17,552 bases of DNA from Thermoproteota archaeon (GTDB lineage Archaea; Korarchaeota; Korarchaeia; Korarchaeales; Korarchaeaceae). The DNA is taken from NCBI GenBank assembly GCA_015522685.1, contig WALU01000015.1, positions 1 through 17,552 on the forward strand. The letters run 5' to 3'. Below, one piece after another: positions 3,255 to 17,552 of this stretch. The translations under genes were made by a program, and so were the position numbers. The notes under the pieces are model-generated. The model searched no databases, was not told where the DNA came from, and worked only from the letters and a program-made list of their open reading frames with translations. The number at the start of each line of letters is the position of its first letter. Positions within the stretch are counted from its first letter, which is position 1.

Positions 3255-3579
3255 ATCTCTCGTAATAATTGCAGTTCCTCGTGAGGAGTGGAGACATCGT
3301 ATGATACCCAAGTCAAGGGGCGGGGACCGGCTGGGGGCGGAAAATATCGTCATAATATGCGCGAATTGCCATAGGATTCTTACTAGAGCTGAGTGCCTCA
3401 TAAACAGGTACTTTGAGAAATTCCTATCCACCGAAAGCAATCTCTACTGCCCTCATTTCAAAATCCATGAGGAGATTCTACAATTACCTCAGAGAAAATT
3501 GGAGCAGTATTCTCAACAAAATGAGGAATCGGCGTCAACCCTCATTGGAGGATTTCTTCTAAATGAGGTATATTTATGA
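3255..3579 (+). pseudogene. Degenerate HNH endonuclease
   Basis: IPKSRGGDRLGAENIVIICANCHR is an HNH core. The in-frame codons before ATG 3301 are CAT-CGT (H-R-M-I-P instead of H-H-x-I-P). The upstream Cys segment (NNCSSS*GVE) is out of frame and has a stop. Confidence 0.65.
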
Positions 3580-3658: not shown

Positions 3659-4186
3659 CTATATAATATCCAAAATTAAGTGACTGGAGTATCCTATTAT
3701 GTAAGCAGCCGCTGTTGGAGTGAAAGCTACACCGTATTGATCCGATATGAGTAAAATACTCCATATTCCAACTACCAACCCTAGAAACCAGTGCCATGCG
3801 CCTCTATGGGAAAAGAATCTTGGAATTATCGCAAATACCAAAACGATCACTGTGAAAGCAAGCACCTTCTCATCTATGCTTATGGCCTCAATCCCGAAGA
3901 GAGGTAGTACTACCACCATGAAAAGGAGAAAAATAGATAGTGAAGTAACCACGCTTCTTATCTTAGATGCATGGCTATCCAAATCTGGAGCTAGAGATCC
4001 GAATAGAAGAGAGATCAGACTGTAAATCAGCGTTTGAGGATCATTAGGAACTATCTGATGAAGAAATGATGTTAGAGATTCGGACAGGCCTACTTCGATC
4101 CTACCAGTTAGCTGAAGGATGATGAAGACAATTACCATAAAGTAGAATACAAGTCCACCCATCAGGTGAGTTTTATACCCGGCCAT
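3659..4186 (-). CDS. Membrane-bound metal-dependent hydrolase (YdjM-like)
   Basis: All four family motifs are present: N-terminal TH, GSLAPDLD, HRGAWH and YSSHLILD, separated by several TM helices. Confidence 0.9.
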   Translation of the reverse strand: MAGYKTHLMGGLVFYFMVIVFIILQLTGRIEVGLSESLTSFLHQIVPNDPQTLIYSLISLLFGSLAPDLDSHASKIRSVVTSLSIFLLFMVVVLPLFGIEAISIDEKVLAFTVIVLVFAIIPRFFSHRGAWHWFLGLVVGIWSILLISDQYGVAFTPTAAAYIIGYSSHLILDII

Positions 4187-4245: not shown

Positions 4246-4422
4246 TCAGAACAATCCTAAGAACTTTTTCTTCTTCCTAGGACCTCTTGGTTTTCCGGCA
4301 TCGCTTCTCTTTTTTCTCCACCGGCCCGATTTTGTTCTGGCTCTCGGTACCTTGCCAACATGAGGTATCTTACCAGCCCGTCGATCGGTTGAATATGAGC
4401 TTTTCTTGGATTTCCTTGCCAT
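4246..4422 (-). CDS. 58-aa highly basic small protein (below the ORF-track size cutoff)
   Basis: ATG 4422 to TGA 4246-4248 reads MARKSKKSSYSTDRRAGKIPHVGKVPRARTKSGRWRKKRSDAGKPRGPRKKKKFLGLF. It has 13 K + 10 R versus 2 D. A TATA-like box lies ~25-30 nt upstream and the hydrolase starts 59 nt downstream on the same strand. Confidence 0.8.
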   Translation of the reverse strand: MARKSKKSSYSTDRRAGKIPHVGKVPRARTKSGRWRKKRSDAGKPRGPRKKKKFLGLF

Positions 4423-4443
4423 GATCTAGATAGTAGTTTTTAA

Positions 4444-4466
4444 TAGATAAAAAGATTTGTGTTTCT
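4444..4466 (-). promoter_or_regulatory. Putative BRE/TATA promoter for the basic peptide-hydrolase unit
   Basis: Minus strand reads GAAACACAAATC-TTTTTATC, placing the box 24-31 nt before ATG 4422, the spacing expected for a leaderless archaeal transcript. Confidence 0.45.
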
Positions 4467-4540
4467 CATAATATAATCCATGAGTAATCCAATTTAATAT
4501 TAAATAATAAAAATGTATATCATTGCTCTAGATGATCAGA

Positions 4541-4954
4541 TCAGGAGAACCTCCTGCTCACCGCAATCTTTTCCTTCAGCTTCCCTTTCAACCCGCTGAA
4601 CCTTTCTTTATCCACAACATTGCCGCTCTCCCAATCTATCCTAAGGTATACGGATCCCCCATCCTCCATCCTCAGCTTAGCAATCCATGCTGGACTTGAG
4701 GTGGATTCCTTTATCTCAACTTCCTTGGCACCATCCACAAGAGATCTAGCCTTTTGTACAGCCAGCTCACGCGACATCCTCCTGCTTATCTCCCTCGACA
4801 CTCCCTCTTTAGTAAGGACAGCTCGGTACTCCCATCCTCCTATGAGCCCTTCAATTGACCACTTTTCTCCCCTGAACTCGGCGGATATGATCTCAGGGCT
4901 GATTCCATATTTCTTCTCCCATTCAAGTTTAACTACCTCGGTGCTGGCGTGCTC
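4541..4954 (-). pseudogene. 3' fragment of a larger protein with PepSY-like repeats
   Basis: The frame is open well upstream of the tracked 4801 start (EHASTEVVKLEWEKKYGISPEIISAEFRGEKWSIEGLIGGWEYRAVLTKEGV...) up to TAA 4955-4957 with no credible start. The unit MSRELAVQKARSLV...W.......VYLRIDWESGNVV has a PepSY-like pattern. Confidence 0.55.
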
Positions 4955-5721
4955 TTAAAGGCTGGAGAACTCTTAGGCGCGCGCGAACTGGGAGACATCT
5001 TCACCAAGAAGGAGGCCCAAGAGAAGCTCGGTATAACCACCAAGCAATTAAACTACTACCTTGAGGCGCTCCTCAGAGAAGAGTTTCTCCGGAGAATCAC
5101 CAGGGGTATCTACGTCCTCTCCCTAGAACCCGGAAAGGCCTCTTCACCTCATGAGTTCCTTTTAGGCCAGTTGTTGGTGCCCAACGGGGCAGTTGCGTAC
5201 TGGTCCGCTCTCAACTACTACGGACTGACCGAGCAGATTCCAAGAACAGTTTTCCTTCAAACTCCAGTAAAGAGAGGTTACCGAAAGCTCCTAATCCTCG
5301 ACGGCAAGAGGTTCAAGGTAGTTGTAGTCAGCCCTGAGAAGTTTTTTGGAATCAGCACCGTACGTCTTGGACGCAGGGAGGTCCGGATAACAGATCCCGA
5401 AAAGACCCTCGTGGACTGCTTGGACAAGCCCAAGTACTGCGGGGGAATAACCGAAGCTGTTAAGGCCCTCAAGAACGCGAGGCTGAATTATGAAAAGCTG
5501 TTGGAATACGCTGAATGGATGAAGAGCAAGGCCTCCTAAAGCGTTTAGGATTTTTAAGTGAGAGGCTGGGACTTGGAATCGAGGAGGAAATTAAACTTTC
5601 TGAAAAGGACAGGAAGAGCTTTGCCCTTCTTGACCCCTCAATGCCTATTGGAGGCAGTTTTAGCTATCAATGAGGCCTCAGAATCAACGTTCCGGATGAT
5701 TATTGGGAGGAGATAGAATAA
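4949..5721 (+). pseudogene. abiEi: Type IV TA antitoxin, AbiEi family, disrupted
   Basis: Winged-helix N-terminus (LRRITRGIY), AYWSALNYYGLTEQIP and TDPEKTLVDCLDKP motifs. A frameshift near 5532 hides the continuation LLKRLGFLSE...LLDPSMP...SYQ*GLRINVPDDYWEEIE*, which has TGA at 5671-5673 where Trp is expected. The N-terminus looks clipped. Confidence 0.88.
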
Positions 5722-6551
5722 TTGAGGACGAGATAAAGGTCTTGAGTTCCGAGCTTGGGGTGTCGGTTTCTACCGTTGAAAAGGACTATGCTATAAGCTG
5801 GATGCTCTACGGCATCTGGAAGTCAAGATTTTGGAGGGTATTGGCTTTTAAGGGAGGTACCTGCCTGAAAAAGGCTTACTTTCTAGACTACAGGTTTTCT
5901 GAGGATCTTGACTATACCCTGCTTTTGGAAGAACCGGATATAGAAGACATCCAAGCTAAAATATCTGAGGCTGTTGAAACGGCCAGTGAGGGGCCTGTTC
6001 AGTTCCTTGATTTTGAACTAAGGCCAAGATACGGGGTGAAGCTTTTCCAAGGAGAGCTTCTTGGATTTGAAGTTCGAATTCTGTTTAGGCTGCTCAGCAG
6101 AACCGGAAATCTGCCGAAGATTAAAATGGACATAACGCTGGAAAAGTACGAGAATATATTGTTGCCCCTCCAAGAAAGGCAGATTCTTCATGGTTATTCA
6201 GACAGCCCAAGATTTTCTGTGGTAAGCATTAGGGCTTACAGCTTAGAGGAAATACTGGCTGAGAAAATCAGGTCTCTGTTTCAGAGGACGAGGCCGAGGG
6301 ATTTGTACGATGTATGGTTTCTGAAAAACGTTGCCGATCTGGGAAGTGCGGCTCAAATACTCTGCCCCAAGTTCGAGGCTAAGGAAGTCGAGCCGGATGT
6401 GAATGCCCTTCAAGGTAGAAAGCCCTACTATGAAAGAGCATGGAAGAGCAGTCTGGGTCATCAGTTGAGTTGCCCTGAGACGTCCTCCCATCCCTATGGG
6501 ATATATCACCAGTCCCTTATAGAGGAATACCGAAGGTTCATCCTTCCTTAG
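5703..6551 (+). CDS. abiEii: Type IV TA toxin, AbiEii-family nucleotidyltransferase (start codon probably mutated, C-terminus probably replaced)
   Basis: VEKDY, FKGGTCL, YRFSEDLD, EEILAEK and RPRDLYD motifs are intact. A GGAGGAG RBS at 5706-5712 points to ATA at 5718-5720 rather than TTG 5703. Confidence 0.88.
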   Translation: MGGDRIIEDEIKVLSSELGVSVSTVEKDYAISWMLYGIWKSRFWRVLAFKGGTCLKKAYFLDYRFSEDLDYTLLLEEPDIEDIQAKISEAVETASEGPVQFLDFELRPRYGVKLFQGELLGFEVRILFRLLSRTGNLPKIKMDITLEKYENILLPLQERQILHGYSDSPRFSVVSIRAYSLEEILAEKIRSLFQRTRPRDLYDVWFLKNVADLGSAAQILCPKFEAKEVEPDVNALQGRKPYYERAWKSSLGHQLSCPETSSHPYGIYHQSLIEEYRRFILP

Positions 6552-7415: not shown

Positions 7416-8195
7416 ATGAAGATCCAGAAGGCTTCCGGGCAGATAGAGGAGTATAATAGAGATAAGCTCATATCAAGTCTTACTGCTTCAGGACTTGATG
7501 AGGAATCCGCTAATGAGATTGTAAGGGAAATCGAACATATTAGGGGAATAAAGACGACTAAAGATCTCTATAAAGCTGCTAGAAAGATCCTCCTTCAAAG
7601 GCATCCTATAGTTGCAGTCAAGTATTCCTTGAAAGATGCAATAATGAGGCTGGGACCCACTGGCTTCCCATTCGAGGAGTACGCTGCTGAGATATTGAGG
7701 TCTCTCGGCCATCGAGTGAAGACCCATCAGTTCATAAGAGGAAAGTGCGTGACCCACGAGATCGATCTATTGATAGATGGAAGAGAGATAGGAGAGTGCA
7801 AGTATCATAATGAGAGGGGGATTTATACGGGACTGAAAGAGGCCATGTACACTTACATGAGATTCCTGGATATAAATCCTATTAGGGAGTTGAGCGGCGT
7901 GGTCCTAGTTACTAACACGAAGCTCTCGAGGGAAGCGAAGGAGTTCTCCGAGTGCTATGGACTTCGCCTTGTTGGCTGGAAGTATCCTCCCGGCGAAGGG
8001 CTTGAGAAAATGATTGAGAGGAGCAGTATGTATCCAATCACGATCCTTTCCGGAATTATGCCGGAGAGAACCATTAGAAGGTTGGTATCATCGAAGGTAG
8101 TGACGATAACCCAGCTGGCAGGGAGGAGAGATGTAGATGAGAGATGCTTAGAAGTGGTAAGGAAGTTACTCAGATCCGTAGATGGTGATGTTTAA
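7416..8195 (+). CDS. ATP-cone domain fused to Mrr-like PD-(D/E)xK nuclease domain
   Basis: N-terminal IQKASGQIEEYNRDKLISSL (ATP cone), followed by LGPTGFPFE, HEIDL...GECKYHN and LVTNTKLS..A (restriction-endonuclease-like core). Confidence 0.88.
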   Translation: MKIQKASGQIEEYNRDKLISSLTASGLDEESANEIVREIEHIRGIKTTKDLYKAARKILLQRHPIVAVKYSLKDAIMRLGPTGFPFEEYAAEILRSLGHRVKTHQFIRGKCVTHEIDLLIDGREIGECKYHNERGIYTGLKEAMYTYMRFLDINPIRELSGVVLVTNTKLSREAKEFSECYGLRLVGWKYPPGEGLEKMIERSSMYPITILSGIMPERTIRRLVSSKVVTITQLAGRRDVDERCLEVVRKLLRSVDGDV

Positions 8196-9056: not shown

Positions 9057-9365
9057 TCAGAGCAATCTCAGGCCCTTTCTCCTCGCTTCCTCTATGAGAT
9101 GGGAATATGTCTCATTATTTGCTATAATAAGGTCCATTGAAAGCCCTACATCCAGCAGAAGGTATAGCTCCTCCTTCAAAAGATTGAAGAAATTTATCTC
9201 CTCTTTAGGGACTATTAGAAGATCGAAGTCACTCTCTCCTTTAATAGCATAGCCCTTTACAATAGATCCGAACACGTAAGCTTCCTTGACCTTACCTTGG
9301 AGCTTACTCTTGAGCCTCTTTACTATGCAGTCTACATCCTTCAAGCTAAGTGACTCAGCGCCCAT
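9057..9365 (-). CDS. Minimal nucleotidyltransferase (MNT) antitoxin
   Basis: AYVFGSIVKG....ESDFDLLIV and MDLI motifs in a 102-aa protein that overlaps the HEPN gene by 11 nt. Confidence 0.92.
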   Translation of the reverse strand: MGAESLSLKDVDCIVKRLKSKLQGKVKEAYVFGSIVKGYAIKGESDFDLLIVPKEEINFFNLLKEELYLLLDVGLSMDLIIANNETYSHLIEEARRKGLRLL

Positions 9366-9723
9366 GCCCCAGCTTCCTCCTGAGCCTCTCTATGATACTC
9401 TCCATCAGTTCTAGATCTTCTCTTCTTATAGAGGGTACCGCTCCATAATCACCTCTCTCCCTCATACTCTGAGCCCTTGCTATACTGCTTATTAGGTCCC
9501 TATCTAGATCCAATTCATCCTTGAGAGCCCATAGCTTAGAAATCAGCCCGGAATGAGTTTTTGGAAGACTTTCTCCATACTTCAGGAGTAAAGCATAGCA
9601 GAGATGAAGAATGGCGTAATATCCCCTAGAAGCGGCATCCTCCATCAACCCTCTACTTTTTAGTAGCCTAAACGACTCATAAGCCTTCTCAGCTCTCTTC
9701 ACATGGATCTCATACTCTTCCAT
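9355..9723 (-). CDS. HEPN domain protein (UPF0332-type)
   Basis: AASRGYYAILH, PKTHSGL and RERGDY motifs; paired with MNT. Confidence 0.92.
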   Translation of the reverse strand: MEEYEIHVKRAEKAYESFRLLKSRGLMEDAASRGYYAILHLCYALLLKYGESLPKTHSGLISKLWALKDELDLDRDLISSIARAQSMRERGDYGAVPSIRREDLELMESIIERLRRKLGHGR

Positions 9724-11040: not shown

Positions 11041-12087
11041 TTAGCTTCCAGTCTTCCTCTTCTGCTTCATTTCCTTTATGACTTCTATTATCGCCGGGAT
11101 TACTTCCTTATAATTGCCTACTATTCCATAGTCAGCACTCTCAAATATTGGGGCATTAGGATCTATATTTATGGCTATGACCCTCCTGGCCTCTCTTATG
11201 CCGAATACGTGCTGAGCAGCTCCACTTATTGCCACAGCGAAGTATACATTCGGCTTGACAGCTTTTCCTGTCTGTCCAACCTGATGGTTATGATCTATCC
11301 ATCCAGCATCTACGACCTTCCTTGAGCCAGCTATCACTCCTCCTAAGAGATCTGCTAATTCCTTAAGAAGCTTAAATCCGTCCTCAGATCCAAGACCTTT
11401 TCCTCCAGAAACTATTATCTCAGCCTTTTCTATCGGGATCTCTTCCTTTTTCTTTATTGGGATGCGTCCAACAAGCCTGATTCCTTTCGGTTCGGGAACA
11501 TCTACCTCCTCTTTTACTATCTCACCCTTCCTTTTCTCATCTCTCTGTGGGGTTGAGAAGATGTTAGGCCTGACAGACCCCATAACAGGTCTTCTAGTCT
11601 TGGTAACTATGTGAGCGAGCATGTAGCCGCCGAAAGGAGGTCTTATGAGGACGACCTCTTTGCTTTTTGGATCTATATCCATCGAAGTTAGGTCAGCGGT
11701 TATACCAGTCCTGAACATGTTAGCTATATATGGAGCCATTTCCCTTCCCTTTAGGGTTGCTGGGATCAGCAAAACCTCCGGTTTATATTTCTCCGCTAGC
11801 TTGCGGATAGCCATCCCATAAGTTGAAGGGTAATAAATAGCGAGCTTCTCATCATCCACGACGAATACTTTATCAGCTCCATAGTAGATGAGCTCCTCAG
11901 CTAGCTCTTTTATTTTATACCCAACTAATGCTACACCTATATATGTTCCCAGCTTATCTGCTAGTTCCTTGGCTGCTCCAATCAGCTGCAGAGATGCTTC
12001 ATTTATCTCTCCTTCTTCAACTAGAGCGCCAACCCATACCCCCTTATATTCGTCAAGCTTTATCTCGGGCCATTCGCTGCATATCAT
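11041..12087 (-). CDS. fixB: Electron transfer flavoprotein alpha subunit (FixB/EtfA)
   Basis: IIVSGGKG, GSRKVVDAGW, QVGQTGKAVKP, ISGAAQH and IAINIDPNAPIF motifs. A GAGGTGA RBS indicates ATG 12087 rather than 12162. Confidence 0.96.
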   Translation of the reverse strand: MICSEWPEIKLDEYKGVWVGALVEEGEINEASLQLIGAAKELADKLGTYIGVALVGYKIKELAEELIYYGADKVFVVDDEKLAIYYPSTYGMAIRKLAEKYKPEVLLIPATLKGREMAPYIANMFRTGITADLTSMDIDPKSKEVVLIRPPFGGYMLAHIVTKTRRPVMGSVRPNIFSTPQRDEKRKGEIVKEEVDVPEPKGIRLVGRIPIKKKEEIPIEKAEIIVSGGKGLGSEDGFKLLKELADLLGGVIAGSRKVVDAGWIDHNHQVGQTGKAVKPNVYFAVAISGAAQHVFGIREARRVIAINIDPNAPIFESADYGIVGNYKEVIPAIIEVIKEMKQKRKTGS

Positions 12088-12116
12088 TAGGATCACCTCT
12101 AATCCAATCAGAATCA

Positions 12117-12920
12117 TCAGATCTCTATCAGGCCCTCCTCCAGTAGCTTCTTCACGAGCCATCTAGCTGCTTTCTTCACATCATTTCCCTTAAATACCTC
12201 ATTCTTCCTAAGAACCTTTGGGATCATCTCTATCTTTGCTAGAGCTGTTGGAGATCCCTTAAGGCCTATGCAGTTCTTCTCTAATCCGAGAATCTCATTG
12301 CTCCATGTCTCTATTGGGCTTTCAAGTTTCACTCTTAACTTGTTATATATACTTACCCTCCTCGGGTTAAGGGAGTGCATGGCTACCGATATTAGAGCTG
12401 GAAGCTCTAGTTCATATGTCTCATAGGCATTCTCCAATGCTCTCTTTACTCTGATTATATTCCTATCCTCTATATATCTCGCCTCCGTGACATAATAGAT
12501 ATAAGGTATCTTGAGCCACGAGGCAACTTGGGCGCCTATGTGTGCGGTTGAGGAGTCTATCGTCTCTTGACCGAACACTATAAGGTTGTAATCTAACCTC
12601 TCCATAGTCTTCGCTAGGGCATAGGATGTAGCTAATGTATCAGCGCCGGCAAATGCTCTATCGGAGACAAGTATTCCACGATCGGCGCCCATCCCTATTA
12701 CATGCTCCAGGCCAGCAATCGCTGATGGGGGAGACATCGTTATCACCGTGACAGTTCCTCCATATTCATTCTTCAATCTCAGAGCCATCTCAACGGCCAC
12801 AAGATCATGCGGATTTACGATGCTTGATATTCCTTCTCTTATGAGAGTTCCTGTCCTCGGATCTATGTTCACTAATGTTGTATTTGGAACCCACTTTATA
12901 CCAACCACTATGTTGAGCAT
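12117..12920 (-). CDS. fixA: Electron transfer flavoprotein beta subunit (FixA/EtfB)
   Basis: IVVGIKWVP, NPHDLVAVE, MGADRG..VSDRAFAGADTLATS and GLKGSPT motifs; GAGGTGA RBS. Confidence 0.96.
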   Translation of the reverse strand: MLNIVVGIKWVPNTTLVNIDPRTGTLIREGISSIVNPHDLVAVEMALRLKNEYGGTVTVITMSPPSAIAGLEHVIGMGADRGILVSDRAFAGADTLATSYALAKTMERLDYNLIVFGQETIDSSTAHIGAQVASWLKIPYIYYVTEARYIEDRNIIRVKRALENAYETYELELPALISVAMHSLNPRRVSIYNKLRVKLESPIETWSNEILGLEKNCIGLKGSPTALAKIEMIPKVLRKNEVFKGNDVKKAARWLVKKLLEEGLIEI

Positions 12921-12929
12921 AAAATCACC

Positions 12930-13241
12930 TCAGCTGAACCTGTAATGGATTCCTCTCCCACTAACTGGATAATTCCATGTGATCGCATTTTCCGGGCATA
13001 TTACCCTGCAAGTGCCGCATTCGAGGCATCCTTCATAGCTGAATAAGACTTCATTCCCGACGAGAGTATAGCACTGGGCAGGGCATAGATAGAGACAGGG
13101 CTTATTCTTGCATTTCCTACACTTCTCACTGTCCACCCTTATGTGCGGCTCATAATCGACATCCCATATATCATTATTCAATATATCATCGACTTTCATT
13201 GGTTTCTCCTTCTTAACTCTCTCATCCTTTGCAACACTCAT
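12930..13241 (-). CDS. fixX: FixX-type ferredoxin
   Basis: CRKC...PCLYLCPAQCY and YEGCLECGTCRVIC, W.YP..G.GI.YRF; ATGA overlap with fixC. Confidence 0.95.
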   Translation of the reverse strand: MSVAKDERVKKEKPMKVDDILNNDIWDVDYEPHIRVDSEKCRKCKNKPCLYLCPAQCYTLVGNEVLFSYEGCLECGTCRVICPENAITWNYPVSGRGIHYRFS

Positions 13242-14524
13242 ATACTCCTACTCACCTCGTAAAGATCTCTAATAAGGGTAAACCATCCAATTCTTCCTTT
13301 ATTTGCCTCTTTAAATGCATCCATGATCTTGGGAGTCTCATACTTGGCATGAAATATCTTATCTGCTATGGCGTTTATCAGATAAGGGTAGAAGTCATAT
13401 AATCTTTCATTCTTCCTCATTTTAGGAGCGTTCTTGAATTTCCTAAGCTCCCTTAGGATAAAACTCTTCTCTAACAGTTCTTGGTAAATTGACAGATTCT
13501 CAGCGGACATACCTCCCAAGGAGTGAGCCTTCTCTACTGCTTGAGCTGCCAAATAACCCGAATATGATGCAAAATCAACTCCCCTAAAATTGTAGCCTAG
13601 GTTGAGGAGCAAGCCAGCTGCATCTCCGGCCACCAAGAAGCCATCCCCGTAAAGCCTGTGCGGTATCGCTGGCCAAACATATTCAGGTACTAGATGGGCA
13701 GAATACTCCATTATCCTACCTTCCCTGAAGTACTTCTCCAAGAGAGGATGGAGTCTGAGCCTCTCCACATACCGAGATATATGCTCCTTCATTCTCTCCA
13801 TGGCGCTGCCCAGCATCACCACTATTCCCAAGCTTATCGAATCCTTATTTGTGTAGAGAAAGGCCCCTCCAGGTAGCCCCTCCATTATATCTCCTATAAG
13901 GAGCCATGCTATTCCCTCCCCACTTCCCAGGCCGAAGTTCTTCTCTATATCCTCCTTCGAGAGTTTTATTACTTCCTTTACTCCCAAACCAGCATAGTTT
14001 GGGGTTATTCTGGGAATCAGGCCTGCTCTTTCCAATAGAAGTCTATTTATTCCTTCCGCATCGATCACCACATCAGAGAATACTTCCTCATTACCAACCC
14101 TGATTCCCTTAACTCTTCCATCCTTCACAATAAAGTTATCAACCGTTATCTCTGTGAGAACTATCCCTCCAGCTTCCTCCACCTGCTTGGCCATCCAATT
14201 ACTAAGCTCTGTGAGATAGGTAGTAAAGCTAACATTCTTTTTCCCCTCGAACTCTAAGGAAGTCATCTTTTCGCCGCTCACCATGGAGATTCTCTCCTTA
14301 GTGACCCACCTATGTATTGGGGCAGATTTATTGAGATTAGGGAACACCTCTCTAATAGGATCCGCGTAGACTCGTCCCCCAAACATGTTTTTGGAACCAG
14401 GCGTTCTACCTCTCTCGACAACTAATACCTTGAATCCCTTCCTCGCTAACGTATAAGCGGCTGAAGATCCAGCAGGCCCAGCTCCGACTACTATGGCATC
14501 GAATATATAGCCTGCCCCCTTCAA
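13238..14524 (-). CDS. fixC: FixC-type FAD-dependent ETF:quinone oxidoreductase
   Basis: GAGPAG, ERG..PGSKNMFGG, GGAFLYTN, EYSAHLVPE and GDAAG motifs. A GGTGA RBS suggests TTG 14524 as start (track: 14536). Confidence 0.95.
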   Translation of the reverse strand: MKGAGYIFDAIVVGAGPAGSSAAYTLARKGFKVLVVERGRTPGSKNMFGGRVYADPIREVFPNLNKSAPIHRWVTKERISMVSGEKMTSLEFEGKKNVSFTTYLTELSNWMAKQVEEAGGIVLTEITVDNFIVKDGRVKGIRVGNEEVFSDVVIDAEGINRLLLERAGLIPRITPNYAGLGVKEVIKLSKEDIEKNFGLGSGEGIAWLLIGDIMEGLPGGAFLYTNKDSISLGIVVMLGSAMERMKEHISRYVERLRLHPLLEKYFREGRIMEYSAHLVPEYVWPAIPHRLYGDGFLVAGDAAGLLLNLGYNFRGVDFASYSGYLAAQAVEKAHSLGGMSAENLSIYQELLEKSFILRELRKFKNAPKMRKNERLYDFYPYLINAIADKIFHAKYETPKIMDAFKEANKGRIGWFTLIRDLYEVSRSI

Positions 14525-14549
14525 TTGTGATATCACCTTTCCCAGCTTA

Positions 14550-16328: not shown

Positions 16329-17552
16329 ATGAATGCAGGGGGATATATAGGTAAGATTTTAAGGACAGATCTATCCACTGGATCAATCAAGGTCGAGCCA
16401 ACATCCGAGGAGATCGCCAAGAGATATATAGGAGGAAAGGGATACGCAGTCTATCTTCTTTACCAATACCTCAAGGAGTATATATCAAAAGGGATTGCTC
16501 CCAGGGATATAAATCCGTTAGGACCAGAGAATGTTCTGGTACTGGCAACAGGTCCTGGTACTGGCATTCCAGGCTTTCCATCCCCAGGCAGGTACCATGC
16601 CATGGCCCTGAGAGCCCCTCTAACAGGGTCAATAGGGAGCGGTAATTCTGGAGGAGAGTGGGGGACCTACCTCAAGATGGCTGGCTATGATGCTATCATA
16701 CTAGAAGGTGCATCTGAAGAGCCTGTTTATCTCTCCATAGTAGATGGAGAAGCTGAACTCAAGGGAGCGAAGGATCTATGGGGCGGGAATACTTTTATTA
16801 CGGATAAAGTGCTTAAGAGAAGAATAGGAAGGAGGAACGCTAGTGTTCTCTGTATAGGGCCAGCGGGAGAGAATCTAACTTATTTTGCCAGTATTATAAA
16901 TGATGAGCACAGATCCGCTGGTAGAGGTGGGCTAGGAGCAGTCATGGGATCCAAGAAGCTCAAGGGTATTGTGGTATCTGGTACTCAGAGATTACCAATA
17001 GCGAACAGGGAGAAGTATCAAGAAGCTTCTAAGAAAGCTTTGGATATGATGAAGAAGAACTCTGTGACTGGGGAGGGCTTATCTAAATATGGAACAGCCA
17101 TCTTAGTAAATATAATAAATCAGGCTGGGATGCTCCCCTACAAGAATTGGCAGACTGGCGTTAACCCCAATGCAGATAAGATAAGTGGTGAATACCTAGA
17201 AGCCAATTATCTCATAAGGAATAGGGCATGTTGGGGATGCACTTCGGCATGTGGAAGGGTGACGAAAGTTGAATCAGGGCCATATCAGGTCCTATACAGT
17301 GAGGGCCCAGAATATGAGTCTATATGGGCTCTAGGAAGTTCCACTGCTGTAAATAACTTGGAAGCCATAATAAAGGCCAATCATTATTGTGATGAATTCG
17401 GCTTGGATACCATATCAATGGGATCTACGATAGCTGCTGCTATGGAGCTGAATGAGAAGGGTTACATACCGAAAGAGGACTTGGAAGGACTGGACCTCAG
17501 ATTTGGTAACGCTGCAGCTCTAGTTGAGGCTGTATGGCGCACTGCCCACAAG
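16329..17552 (+). CDS. aor: Aldehyde:ferredoxin oxidoreductase (tungstopterin AOR family), 3' end outside the window
   Basis: ATG 16329: MNAGGYIGKILRTDLSTG...YIGGKG...PLGPEN...APLTG..GSGNSGG.WG..LK.AGYDAI...CIGPAGENL...AGRGGLGAVMGSKKLK...CWGCTSAC...EGPEYES...CDEFGLDTIS. Absent from the ORF track because no stop occurs in the window. Confidence 0.97.
   Translation, partial: MNAGGYIGKILRTDLSTGSIKVEPTSEEIAKRYIGGKGYAVYLLYQYLKEYISKGIAPRDINPLGPENVLVLATGPGTGIPGFPSPGRYHAMALRAPLTGSIGSGNSGGEWGTYLKMAGYDAIILEGASEEPVYLSIVDGEAELKGAKDLWGGNTFITDKVLKRRIGRRNASVLCIGPAGENLTYFASIINDEHRSAGRGGLGAVMGSKKLKGIVVSGTQRLPIANREKYQEASKKALDMMKKNSVTGEGLSKYGTAILVNIINQAGMLPYKNWQTGVNPNADKISGEYLEANYLIRNRACWGCTSACGRVTKVESGPYQVLYSEGPEYESIWALGSSTAVNNLEAIIKANHYCDEFGLDTISMGSTIAAAMELNEKGYIPKEDLEGLDLRFGNAAALVEAVWRTAHK

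Follow-up and report, generated by a model that had tools for sequence, protein, structure and literature searches.

A short polybasic module scattered among archaea, bacteria, phages and small plasmids: a candidate DNA-binding hairpin with a membrane-seeking tail in an archaeal defence island

The small basic proteins of the ribosome include bTHX, bS22, eL41 and similar chains. Bacillus subtilis Noc is a membrane tether of DNA, and the Tat peptides of lentiviruses bind nucleic acids as arginine-rich beta-hairpins. The membrane-targeting sequence of Escherichia coli MinD is KGFLKRLFGG (PMC5471200). Here, we describe a polybasic mini-protein encoded at positions 4246-4422 (minus strand) of contig WALU01000015.1 from a Thermoproteota archaeon; the whole stretch analysed, 17,552 nucleotides, is called the window throughout. 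The mini-protein is built on a portable module of about 35 residues that is horizontally scattered among bacteria, archaea, phages and small plasmids, and that is recurrently associated with DNA-handling genes and with mobile and defence contexts. We tentatively suggest that the module may grip DNA and that, in some versions, a C-terminal tail may bring it to the membrane. The gene and its parts are the following:

4246-4422, minus strand: polybasic mini-protein gene (P0001), stop codon included, identified by its open reading frame (ORF) and translation, homologues and purifying selection
4390-4422, minus strand: N-terminal extension, residues 1-11 (MARKSKKSSYS), delimited by alignments
4285-4389, minus strand: conserved module, residues 12-46 (TDRRAGKIPHVGKVPRARTKSGRWRKKRSDAGKPR), delimited by an alignment of 48 members (alignment A2)
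4249-4284, minus strand: C-terminal tail, residues 47-58 (GPRKKKKFLGLF), a lysine run followed by the hydrophobic FLGLF (4249-4263)
4445-4454, minus strand: AT-rich 10-nt element CTTTTTATCT, candidate TATA box, with the same 10-mer in the related genome G011

The reading frame starts with ATG and runs for 58 codons to a TGA; its product is MARKSKKSSYSTDRRAGKIPHVGKVPRARTKSGRWRKKRSDAGKPRGPRKKKKFLGLF. It contains 13 lysines and 10 arginines (23 basic residues, 39.7%), two aspartates, no glutamate and one histidine. This confirmed the composition given in an earlier note on this DNA (58 amino acids, about 40% Lys/Arg, 23 basic versus 2 acidic residues), and the core PRARTKSGRWRKKRSDAGKPR and the C-terminal KKKKFLGLF quoted there are both present. 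The extension of residues 1-11 is confined to two archaeal copies, while most family members begin with M-[AT]-D-R-R; the copy of G011 starts with MARKSRSKNKSPYS. An identical 58-residue entry exists in the public protein collection (from NCBI and ENA), with no name attached. An AT-rich spacer of 118 nt lies 5' of the ATG. Within it, CTTTTTATCT ends 22 nt before the ATG, and the identical 10-mer ends 19 nt before the ATG in G011. Its conservation despite saturated synonymous sites fits a TATA box of a leaderless or nearly leaderless mRNA. The TATA-like promoter that had been proposed for this gene is a conserved element whose promoter activity is putative.

Purifying selection acts strongly on the protein reading frame at 4246-4422, which is a real gene. 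In a comparison with the closest relative, the copy of G011 (protein 89% identical), the final 47 codons showed 34.0 synonymous differences and 3.0 non-synonymous ones (pS about 1.0, pN 0.028). Over a core of 19 codons in 66 members, with DNA of 30-73% G+C, nucleotide identity at codon positions 1, 2 and 3 was 0.76, 0.86 and 0.41 respectively. The M-[AT]-D-R-R start was kept in most of 72 distinct genome-derived sequences. With homologues abundant and constraint measured at the codon level, the earlier note's own ground for discarding the protein, a lack of homologues conserved codon by codon, falls away.

Relatives were found by every route used. Of 22 candidates returned by a word-indexed search, 20 were homologues; scanning one genome from each species for the pattern gave 134 relatives in genome contigs, and a metagenome scan gave at least 418. 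A full HMMER pass over 1.84 billion representatives returned 361 clusters (50% identity) at E <= 1e-3, 79 of them at E <= 1e-10; every one of the top 150 of the 361 clusters was 37-154 amino acids long. The earlier note's statement that G-x-W-R-K-K-R-S-D peptides occur among uncharacterised prokaryotic proteins was correct, and understated. The family is built on the module DRRAG..PHV..PRxR..DGxWRKKRSDAGK. A typical member has 40-45 residues and reads M-A-D-R-R-A-G-x-x-P-H-V, an optional P-x-x-G-G-G insert, and then K-x-P-R-x-R-N-x-D-G-x-W-R-K-K-R-S-D-A-G-K-x-R-K-K. Ten positions are invariant among the 48 aligned members (R27, G33, W35, R36, K37, K38, R39, S40, D41 and G43 in window numbering). 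The window copy matched the A2 profile over the full length of the module (E 2.3e-17).

As far as sequence comparison reaches, the family and its module are new, with no detectable relative among described families. All relatives that carry names are called 'hypothetical' or 'uncharacterized' protein. Pfam and NCBIfam gave no family for the window protein or for eight bacterial members, and PADLOC assigned none to any of the 12 proteins tested. The best PHROGs match had an E of 0.0046, and no PHROGs match covered the conserved WRKKRSD core. A profile search of the PDB gave nothing below E 1.4, its single match being an esterase-like protein; the ESM Atlas returned only unnamed clusters (0.80-0.84, below the useful range), and the family motif strings matched nothing in the searchable literature. 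We regard the novelty as one of family level since no searchable described family, structure or paper covers the module. The core of an AT-hook is R-G-R-P flanked by basic residues; the mini-protein has P-R-G-P-R in its place, in a stretch that is not conserved in the family, and the AT-hook was rejected as a candidate. The earlier note also placed R-K-x-R-S-D-x-G segments in the basic linkers of transposases. This could not be verified: no DDE transposase was present among 120 listed of the 178 longer matches described below, and [RK][RK]xRSDxG occurred only twice outside the family in the fetched loci, in neither case in a transposase.

Carriage is sporadic and crosses the divide between bacteria and archaea. 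In the archaeon's own phylum the gene was carried by 2 of 43 genomes (2 of the 25 near-complete ones), both in one genus. Among the relatives of a Solirubrobacterales carrier, 3 of 41 had the gene, and among those of a Dehalococcoidia carrier, 4 of 41; it was single-copy in all five carriers checked. According to the record titles, the carriers belong to Actinomycetota, Chloroflexota, cyanobacterial sponge symbionts, Nitrospiria, Bacillota, Thermoplasmatota, Bathyarchaeota and others, and cultured ones include Rubrobacter marinus, Streptococcus henryi DSM 19005 and a Ktedonobacter sp. Viruses carry the module rarely (only 6 relatives in the 2.9 million viral contigs of IMG/VR, and one doubtful 3.7-kb record among cultured phages).

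The module occurs alone, as tandem doubles (P0021, P0022), fused to membrane helices (P0227, P0284) and within longer proteins. Longer cellular proteins numbered 178 at E <= 0.01, of which 120 were listed. The largest group among those listed comprises Pseudomonadota proteins of about 155 residues, in which an N-terminal module is followed by a CFI-box-CTERM domain (NCBIfam NF041770, confirmed in four of the four module fusions tested). In 39 sequences of this group, G16, P17, V19, G22, P23, T24, G26, R29, R31, G35, W37, K40, R41, S42 and D43 are invariant. The name of the CFI-box-CTERM domain was not mentioned in the searchable literature, and a Foldseek search of the fusion model against the PDB gave no match at E <= 1e-3. 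Eight of the longer matches have a precomputed Pfam domain, and each of the eight is a protein that binds or processes DNA: five XRE-type helix-turn-helix (HTH) proteins (HTH_3/19/31/37), one MarR_2, one Vsr plus MTES_1575 (restriction endonuclease) and one PrlF. In at least two sponge-symbiont cyanobacteria (L023 4416-5505 and L036), a PrlF fusion is paired with a YhaV-like gene. In L023 the PrlF-like module fusion lies at 4416-5015 and is followed at 4969-5505 by the YhaV-like gene, whose likeness was read from the translation. Approximately 1 kb downstream of the pair, both loci also have a gene for a free peptide whose hydrophobic tail is long.

In four viral contigs, otherwise unrelated proteins open with the module in their first ~35 residues. 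These phage proteins are 53-69% identical over the first 31-43 aligned residues and share no similarity beyond them. Three of the genes lie just after a portal gene and a gene of ~170-184 codons, in the head-morphogenesis block. One phage module protein is a papain-family peptidase beside lysis genes (holin, endolysin), and one has a membrane helix. The module-headed phage proteins of IMG/VR are located at:

L101, 5989-6270
L103, 5270-5677
L105, 5989-6348
L104, 5992-6837
L102, near the 5' end

Next, we considered the genes beside the free peptide in a census of 166 loci, counting an HNH-like gene as adjacent if it lay on the same strand at a gap of <= 300 nt. Such a gene was found at 32 of the 166 loci, among them the Bathyarchaeota metagenome-assembled genome (MAG) L096 and the Nitrospiria locus L022; it lay downstream in 29 cases, with gaps of 21-100 nt, and upstream in 3. 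The adjacent HNH proteins form two groups that are related to each other (93.4% probability, E 2.4e-7), one of them Pfam-verified. The L174-type group was assigned by its CxxC…DH…N…CxxCH motif and by this 93.4% profile match; none of its five homologues carried a precomputed Pfam domain. XRE-HTH genes, usually fused to an M78 (ImmA/IrrE-type) peptidase, lie directly upstream in 21 of the 166 loci and are mostly divergent, and a class II ribonucleotide reductase is adjacent in 8 loci. Among the genome-derived loci, the nearest larger ORF belonged to a mobile-element, defence or toxin-antitoxin Pfam family in 16 of 69 cases upstream and 17 of 70 downstream (for example Fic, integrases, transposases, AbiEii, Mrr, DndB, N6_Mtase, SMODS, MazE and Macro). 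An integrase or recombinase adjoins the peptide gene in L031, L062, L100 and L190. The fetched flanks of 13 of 60 loci contain tRNA or tmRNA genes, and the order in L031 is tRNA-Arg, integrase, peptide.

The enterobacterial plasmids hold a subfamily of their own. The full 58-residue query found nothing in plasmids or phages (tblastn, E <= 1e-3), and for the plasmids this was a false negative, because the query is short and biased. A 21-residue core query returned 115 plasmid records at E <= 10, and a 43-residue plasmid ORF returned 109 at E <= 1e-3. The carriers are mostly ColE1-type plasmids of 4-10 kb from Klebsiella, Enterobacter, Escherichia, Salmonella and relatives. The plasmid ORF matched the family profile at 98.7% (E 2.7e-16), and its 43 codons are unannotated in all but one of 40 listed records of the 109. 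Among complete E. coli genomes, 14 of 5426 carry it, always on plasmids (4-6 kb). It lies directly beside a gene annotated 'protein L' in all 15 cross-checked records and also in L194. In these pairs both genes are on the same strand, in both orders, and protein L (80-86 residues, CxxC…PPQNHHQH) comes in two types that are ~49% identical. In three larger plasmids, whose gene tables are incomplete, protein L was not seen nearby. Protein L was tried as an HNH relative and rejected (hhalign only 17.7% and 1.0%); it had no match in the PDB, and neither of its two types was found in the window by tblastn. Its name may derive from CloDF13, a link for which the searchable literature gave no paper. 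The pairs of peptide and protein L in L189 (2026-2438), L193 and L194 (2685-3066) stand beside HigBA/RelE-type modules.

With the family alignment, AlphaFold2 (AF2) predicted a mostly extended mini-protein (predicted local distance difference test score, pLDDT, 64.7). Its only beta-bridges were within residues 21-35 (pLDDT 60-76), and they surround a D/S-G-x-W turn. In the model of a CFI-box fusion, the module had a pLDDT of 46-60, next to a helical bundle predicted with confidence. When a tail is counted as hydrophobic or aromatic if at least three of the final 11 residues are F/L/I/W/M/V, a crude criterion, 38 of 116 short members have one, a few of them doubtful; endings in SWW, SFW or GLW are common among metagenome members. 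The tails of the window's closest relatives are KKGFLARLFRG, KGSFLGRLFK and GGIFSRLFGG. The likeness to MinD put forward in the earlier note holds for this subfamily, whose tails come near the MinD sequence; the KKKKFLGLF of the window is only a shorter version, in which the position and the lysine run are present and the second half of the pattern is missing.

The other features of the window that bear on the gene are the following:

3301-3579, plus strand: N-terminally truncated HNH endonuclease remnant (PF01844, E 2.1e-4, model positions 19-45 of 47)
3659-4186, minus strand: YdjM-like membrane metal-dependent hydrolase, downstream neighbour (PF04307, E 2.2e-9)
4544-4951, minus strand: 3' remnant of the gene of a multi-repeat PepSY-like protein, upstream neighbour (open frame of 137 residues; the called ORF, 4541-4801, has 86)
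4949-6551, plus strand: AbiEi/AbiEii pair (weak AbiEi_4 and AbiEi_1 matches; AbiEii nucleotidyltransferase toxin, PF08843, E 3e-31)
7416-8195, plus strand: 259-residue protein that weakly matches an ATP-cone in its N-terminal part and an AF1548-like (restriction-endonuclease-like) domain in its C-terminal part, both under the Pfam cut-offs
9355-9723 and 9057-9365, minus strand: HEPN and minimal nucleotidyltransferase genes respectively, a pair of toxin-antitoxin type
11041-14536, minus strand: FixABCX-like set (electron transfer flavoprotein (ETF) alpha, ETF beta, a ferredoxin-like protein and an ETF-QO-like flavoprotein), core metabolism bordering the island
16329-17552, plus strand: aldehyde:ferredoxin oxidoreductase, core metabolism bordering the island

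The YdjM-like gene begins 59 nt after the peptide stop. The HNH remnant lies 667 nt past the peptide stop on the opposite strand, with in-frame stops upstream of it; it may be a relic of a pairing of peptide and HNH gene, or a coincidence. Upstream, the PepSY-like remnant (a weak PepSY match) is 62% identical to residues 233-369 of the upstream protein of G011, which has at least 369 residues, and is the sole window neighbour that is syntenic with G011. AbiEi starts on the opposite strand at 4949, exactly where the PepSY-like remnant ends, which suggests that insertion of the AbiE cassette truncated the PepSY-like gene. In G011 (L021 1728-2197), a MazE-like gene (Pfam) and a probable PIN gene (VapC-like, read from its translation) lie downstream of the peptide gene, with no YdjM, and the locus contained no HNH-like gene. 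The pairing of ATP-cone and AF1548-like parts at 7416-8195 is an unusual combination. Rfam and ARAGORN found nothing in the window.

Several further observations were made in the loci of relatives. Many of the peptide-adjacent HNH-like proteins have long basic tails themselves; examples with Lys/Arg/Thr-rich C-terminal tails are encoded at L116 4095-4607, L122 1641-2132, L129 644-1075, L096 1444-1845 and L035 5514-5924; the one of L035 ends in FEGLFGF, a tail like that of the peptide. In the Nitrospiria MAG L022 (1-12141), a tandem duplication of ~5 kb (80-98% identity) contains two peptide genes together with an upstream HNH-like ORF. In the Acidimicrobiia loci L041, L049, L053, L085 and L175, the peptide gene is preceded, at a distance of 40-60 nt and in the same orientation, by a conserved ORF of ~72 residues with Cys and His motifs (…YHDVSDCPDG…CEYC…), which may be a further lineage-specific partner.

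Our reading, with a probability of about 0.42, is that the mini-protein is a DNA-binding hairpin of a portable kind that ends in a membrane-seeking tail, and that the window has an orphan copy of it in a defence and toxin-antitoxin island. The 'DNA/RNA-to-membrane tether' of the earlier note thereby remains the best guess, given the fusion partners, the neighbouring genes and the tails. The module would be largely unfolded alone, and a beta-hairpin lined with arginine and lysine would form at the D/S-G-x-W turn on binding a polyanion, most probably DNA. In the archaeal protein, the lysine run and FLGLF would form a weak membrane-seeking end, placing the peptide at the inner face of the membrane while it holds nucleic acid. 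C-terminal tails, membrane helices and perhaps the CFI-box would place some other versions at the membrane as well. In relatives, the module would work beside or fused to HNH-like nucleases, XRE, MarR or PrlF regulators, recombinases and proteins of the phage head module, perhaps with a role in conflicts of mobile elements with their hosts. The window copy would be an orphan in its island, with a promoter-like element, a truncated syntenic gene upstream and a decayed HNH gene nearby. A bolder version is unlikely, namely that the ~35 residues are a universal DNA-gripping mini-domain, exchanged by phages, plasmids and defence islands and bolted to nucleases, repressors, virion proteins and membrane anchors. 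Tail-bearing free peptides would then be minimal tethers between DNA and membrane, and copies paired with HNH or protein L would be a new small module for plasmid or phage exclusion or maintenance.

A number of points weigh against the DNA-binding, membrane-seeking hairpin. Binding to DNA and to the membrane is read from sequence context; the module resembles none of the known DNA-binding folds, and its AF2 models are of low confidence. The invariant Ser-Asp within the basic stretch could equally be a modification site or a protein-protein contact. The otherwise invariant Trp is replaced by Val or Ile in the plasmid subfamily. Most members from Actinomycetota and Chloroflexota have plain Lys/Arg ends without a tail, and as most members are tail-less, membrane tethering cannot be the function of the family as a whole. 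The window's own tail has only five hydrophobic residues, and its hydrophobic moment (0.25-0.48) lies within the range of 10-mers from the same protein (0.09-0.58). The window contains no intact HNH, XRE or protein L partner, which makes its copy an orphan. Finally, the neighbour counts overstate the number of independent events, because many metagenome contigs are near-duplicates.

Other readings share much of this evidence. The near-invariance of WRKKRSDAG over bacteria and archaea in varied contexts suggests a universal and specific target, so that the module might instead dock onto some conserved machine made of protein or ribonucleoprotein (the ribosome, RNA polymerase, a protease or a chaperone). 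As a free peptide it would then regulate or inhibit that machine, possibly as a small toxin or as a counter-measure in conflicts of mobile elements with their hosts. An invariant Ser-Asp would be unusual in a plain polyanion binder, and the islands around the gene abound in toxin-antitoxin and defence genes. However, the module matches no ribosomal or other known family, its fused and adjacent partners mostly handle DNA, there is no operon with an obvious antidote gene, and most of the XRE/M78 genes are divergent rather than co-directional; we consider docking doubtful. Somewhat less probable is a two-gene module in which the peptide serves as small subunit or cofactor and targets, activates or restrains an HNH-like nuclease, or protein L on plasmids, with the window copy left over after its partner decayed. 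The 32 same-strand HNH-like neighbours, the relatedness of the two HNH groups, the adjacency of protein L, in either order, in all 15 cross-checked plasmid records and the HNH remnant at 3301-3579 argue for it. Nevertheless, 134 of the 166 loci lack an adjacent HNH gene, as does G011, the remnant of the window is on the opposite strand behind another gene, and protein L is not demonstrably HNH-like (17.7%). This explanation also overlaps with the hairpin reading and is compatible with DNA binding.

It is improbable that the protein is a membrane-active cationic peptide, with the basic stretch on anionic lipid and the hydrophobic end inserted, acting as a small effector of abortive infection or exclusion, or as a toxin that perturbs membranes. 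The polycationic stretch, the hydrophobic C-terminus, the recurrence of tails or true membrane helices after the module and the island context are consistent with such a role, but the tail is missing from most members, it is the hydrophilic module that is conserved, and the module also occurs on soluble regulators and phage proteins. We give still less credit to the module being an address label, which would direct proteins into phage heads or to a place in the cell, or a substrate for phosphorylation, ADP-ribosylation or cleavage, with the free copies as decoys or remnants. It stands at the N-terminus of four phage proteins that are otherwise unrelated, and the genes of three of these closely follow the portal gene. 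M78 peptidase genes neighbour the peptide in 21 loci, and RKKRSD looks like a possible basophilic kinase site; on the other side stand the scarcity of viral relatives (six, with one doubtful cultured-phage record) and the strong purifying selection on free copies of 40 residues. The earlier note had also considered a partnership with the adjacent hydrolase and a ribosome-associated or protamine-like chromatin protein. The gap to the YdjM-like gene is short and has no obvious terminator, and the protein is extremely basic. By tblastn, however, a YdjM-like gene stood beside the peptide in no other fetched locus, carriage in two genomes of the phylum is far from general, and no Pfam, NCBIfam or PDB match points to either role, so that these readings are essentially excluded.

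A sequence of 35 residues that is nearly unchanged from hydrothermal-vent archaea to Klebsiella plasmids, carried by a few per cent of genomes and unnamed, is unusual. The mini-protein is among the most conserved unnamed sequences of its size, and annotation systematically misses such small proteins. If the module is a general nucleic-acid grip, it would account for a feature that recurs without annotation in phage proteins, antitoxins and HNH cassettes, and it would offer a very small biotechnology tag. The question can be addressed directly, as several cultured organisms and small plasmids of E. coli carry the gene.

Compared with described systems, the mini-protein resembles the small basic ribosomal proteins in size and charge, but unlike them it matches no ribosomal model of Pfam or NCBIfam and no PDB chain, ribosome structures included, and its carriage is sporadic. 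The CFI-box-CTERM proteins share the same N-terminal module, which is more strongly conserved in them, and differ from the window protein in an extra helical bundle of ~100 residues (AF2 pLDDT 82-92). The PrlF/SohA-type antitoxin carries the module N-terminally, while the XRE and MarR regulators carry it C-terminally; compared with all of these, the window protein lacks an HTH or toxin-binding part and has no evident toxin partner. With the MinD targeting sequence, as quoted above, the family tails share an extreme C-terminal position, short length and basic residues followed by Phe/Leu. The resemblance to MinD is confined to the tail, which most members lack, and the conserved module is unrelated to the MinD ATPase. 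Noc and the Tat peptides have no sequence relationship to the mini-protein, which is much smaller and for which both activities are only proposed. They would nevertheless be analogous in logic, Noc by joining a basic nucleic-acid binder to an amphipathic anchor and Tat by a short Arg-rich hairpin that folds on binding. The mechanism proposed here, a basic nucleic-acid binder combined with a membrane anchor, has known counterparts in such systems.

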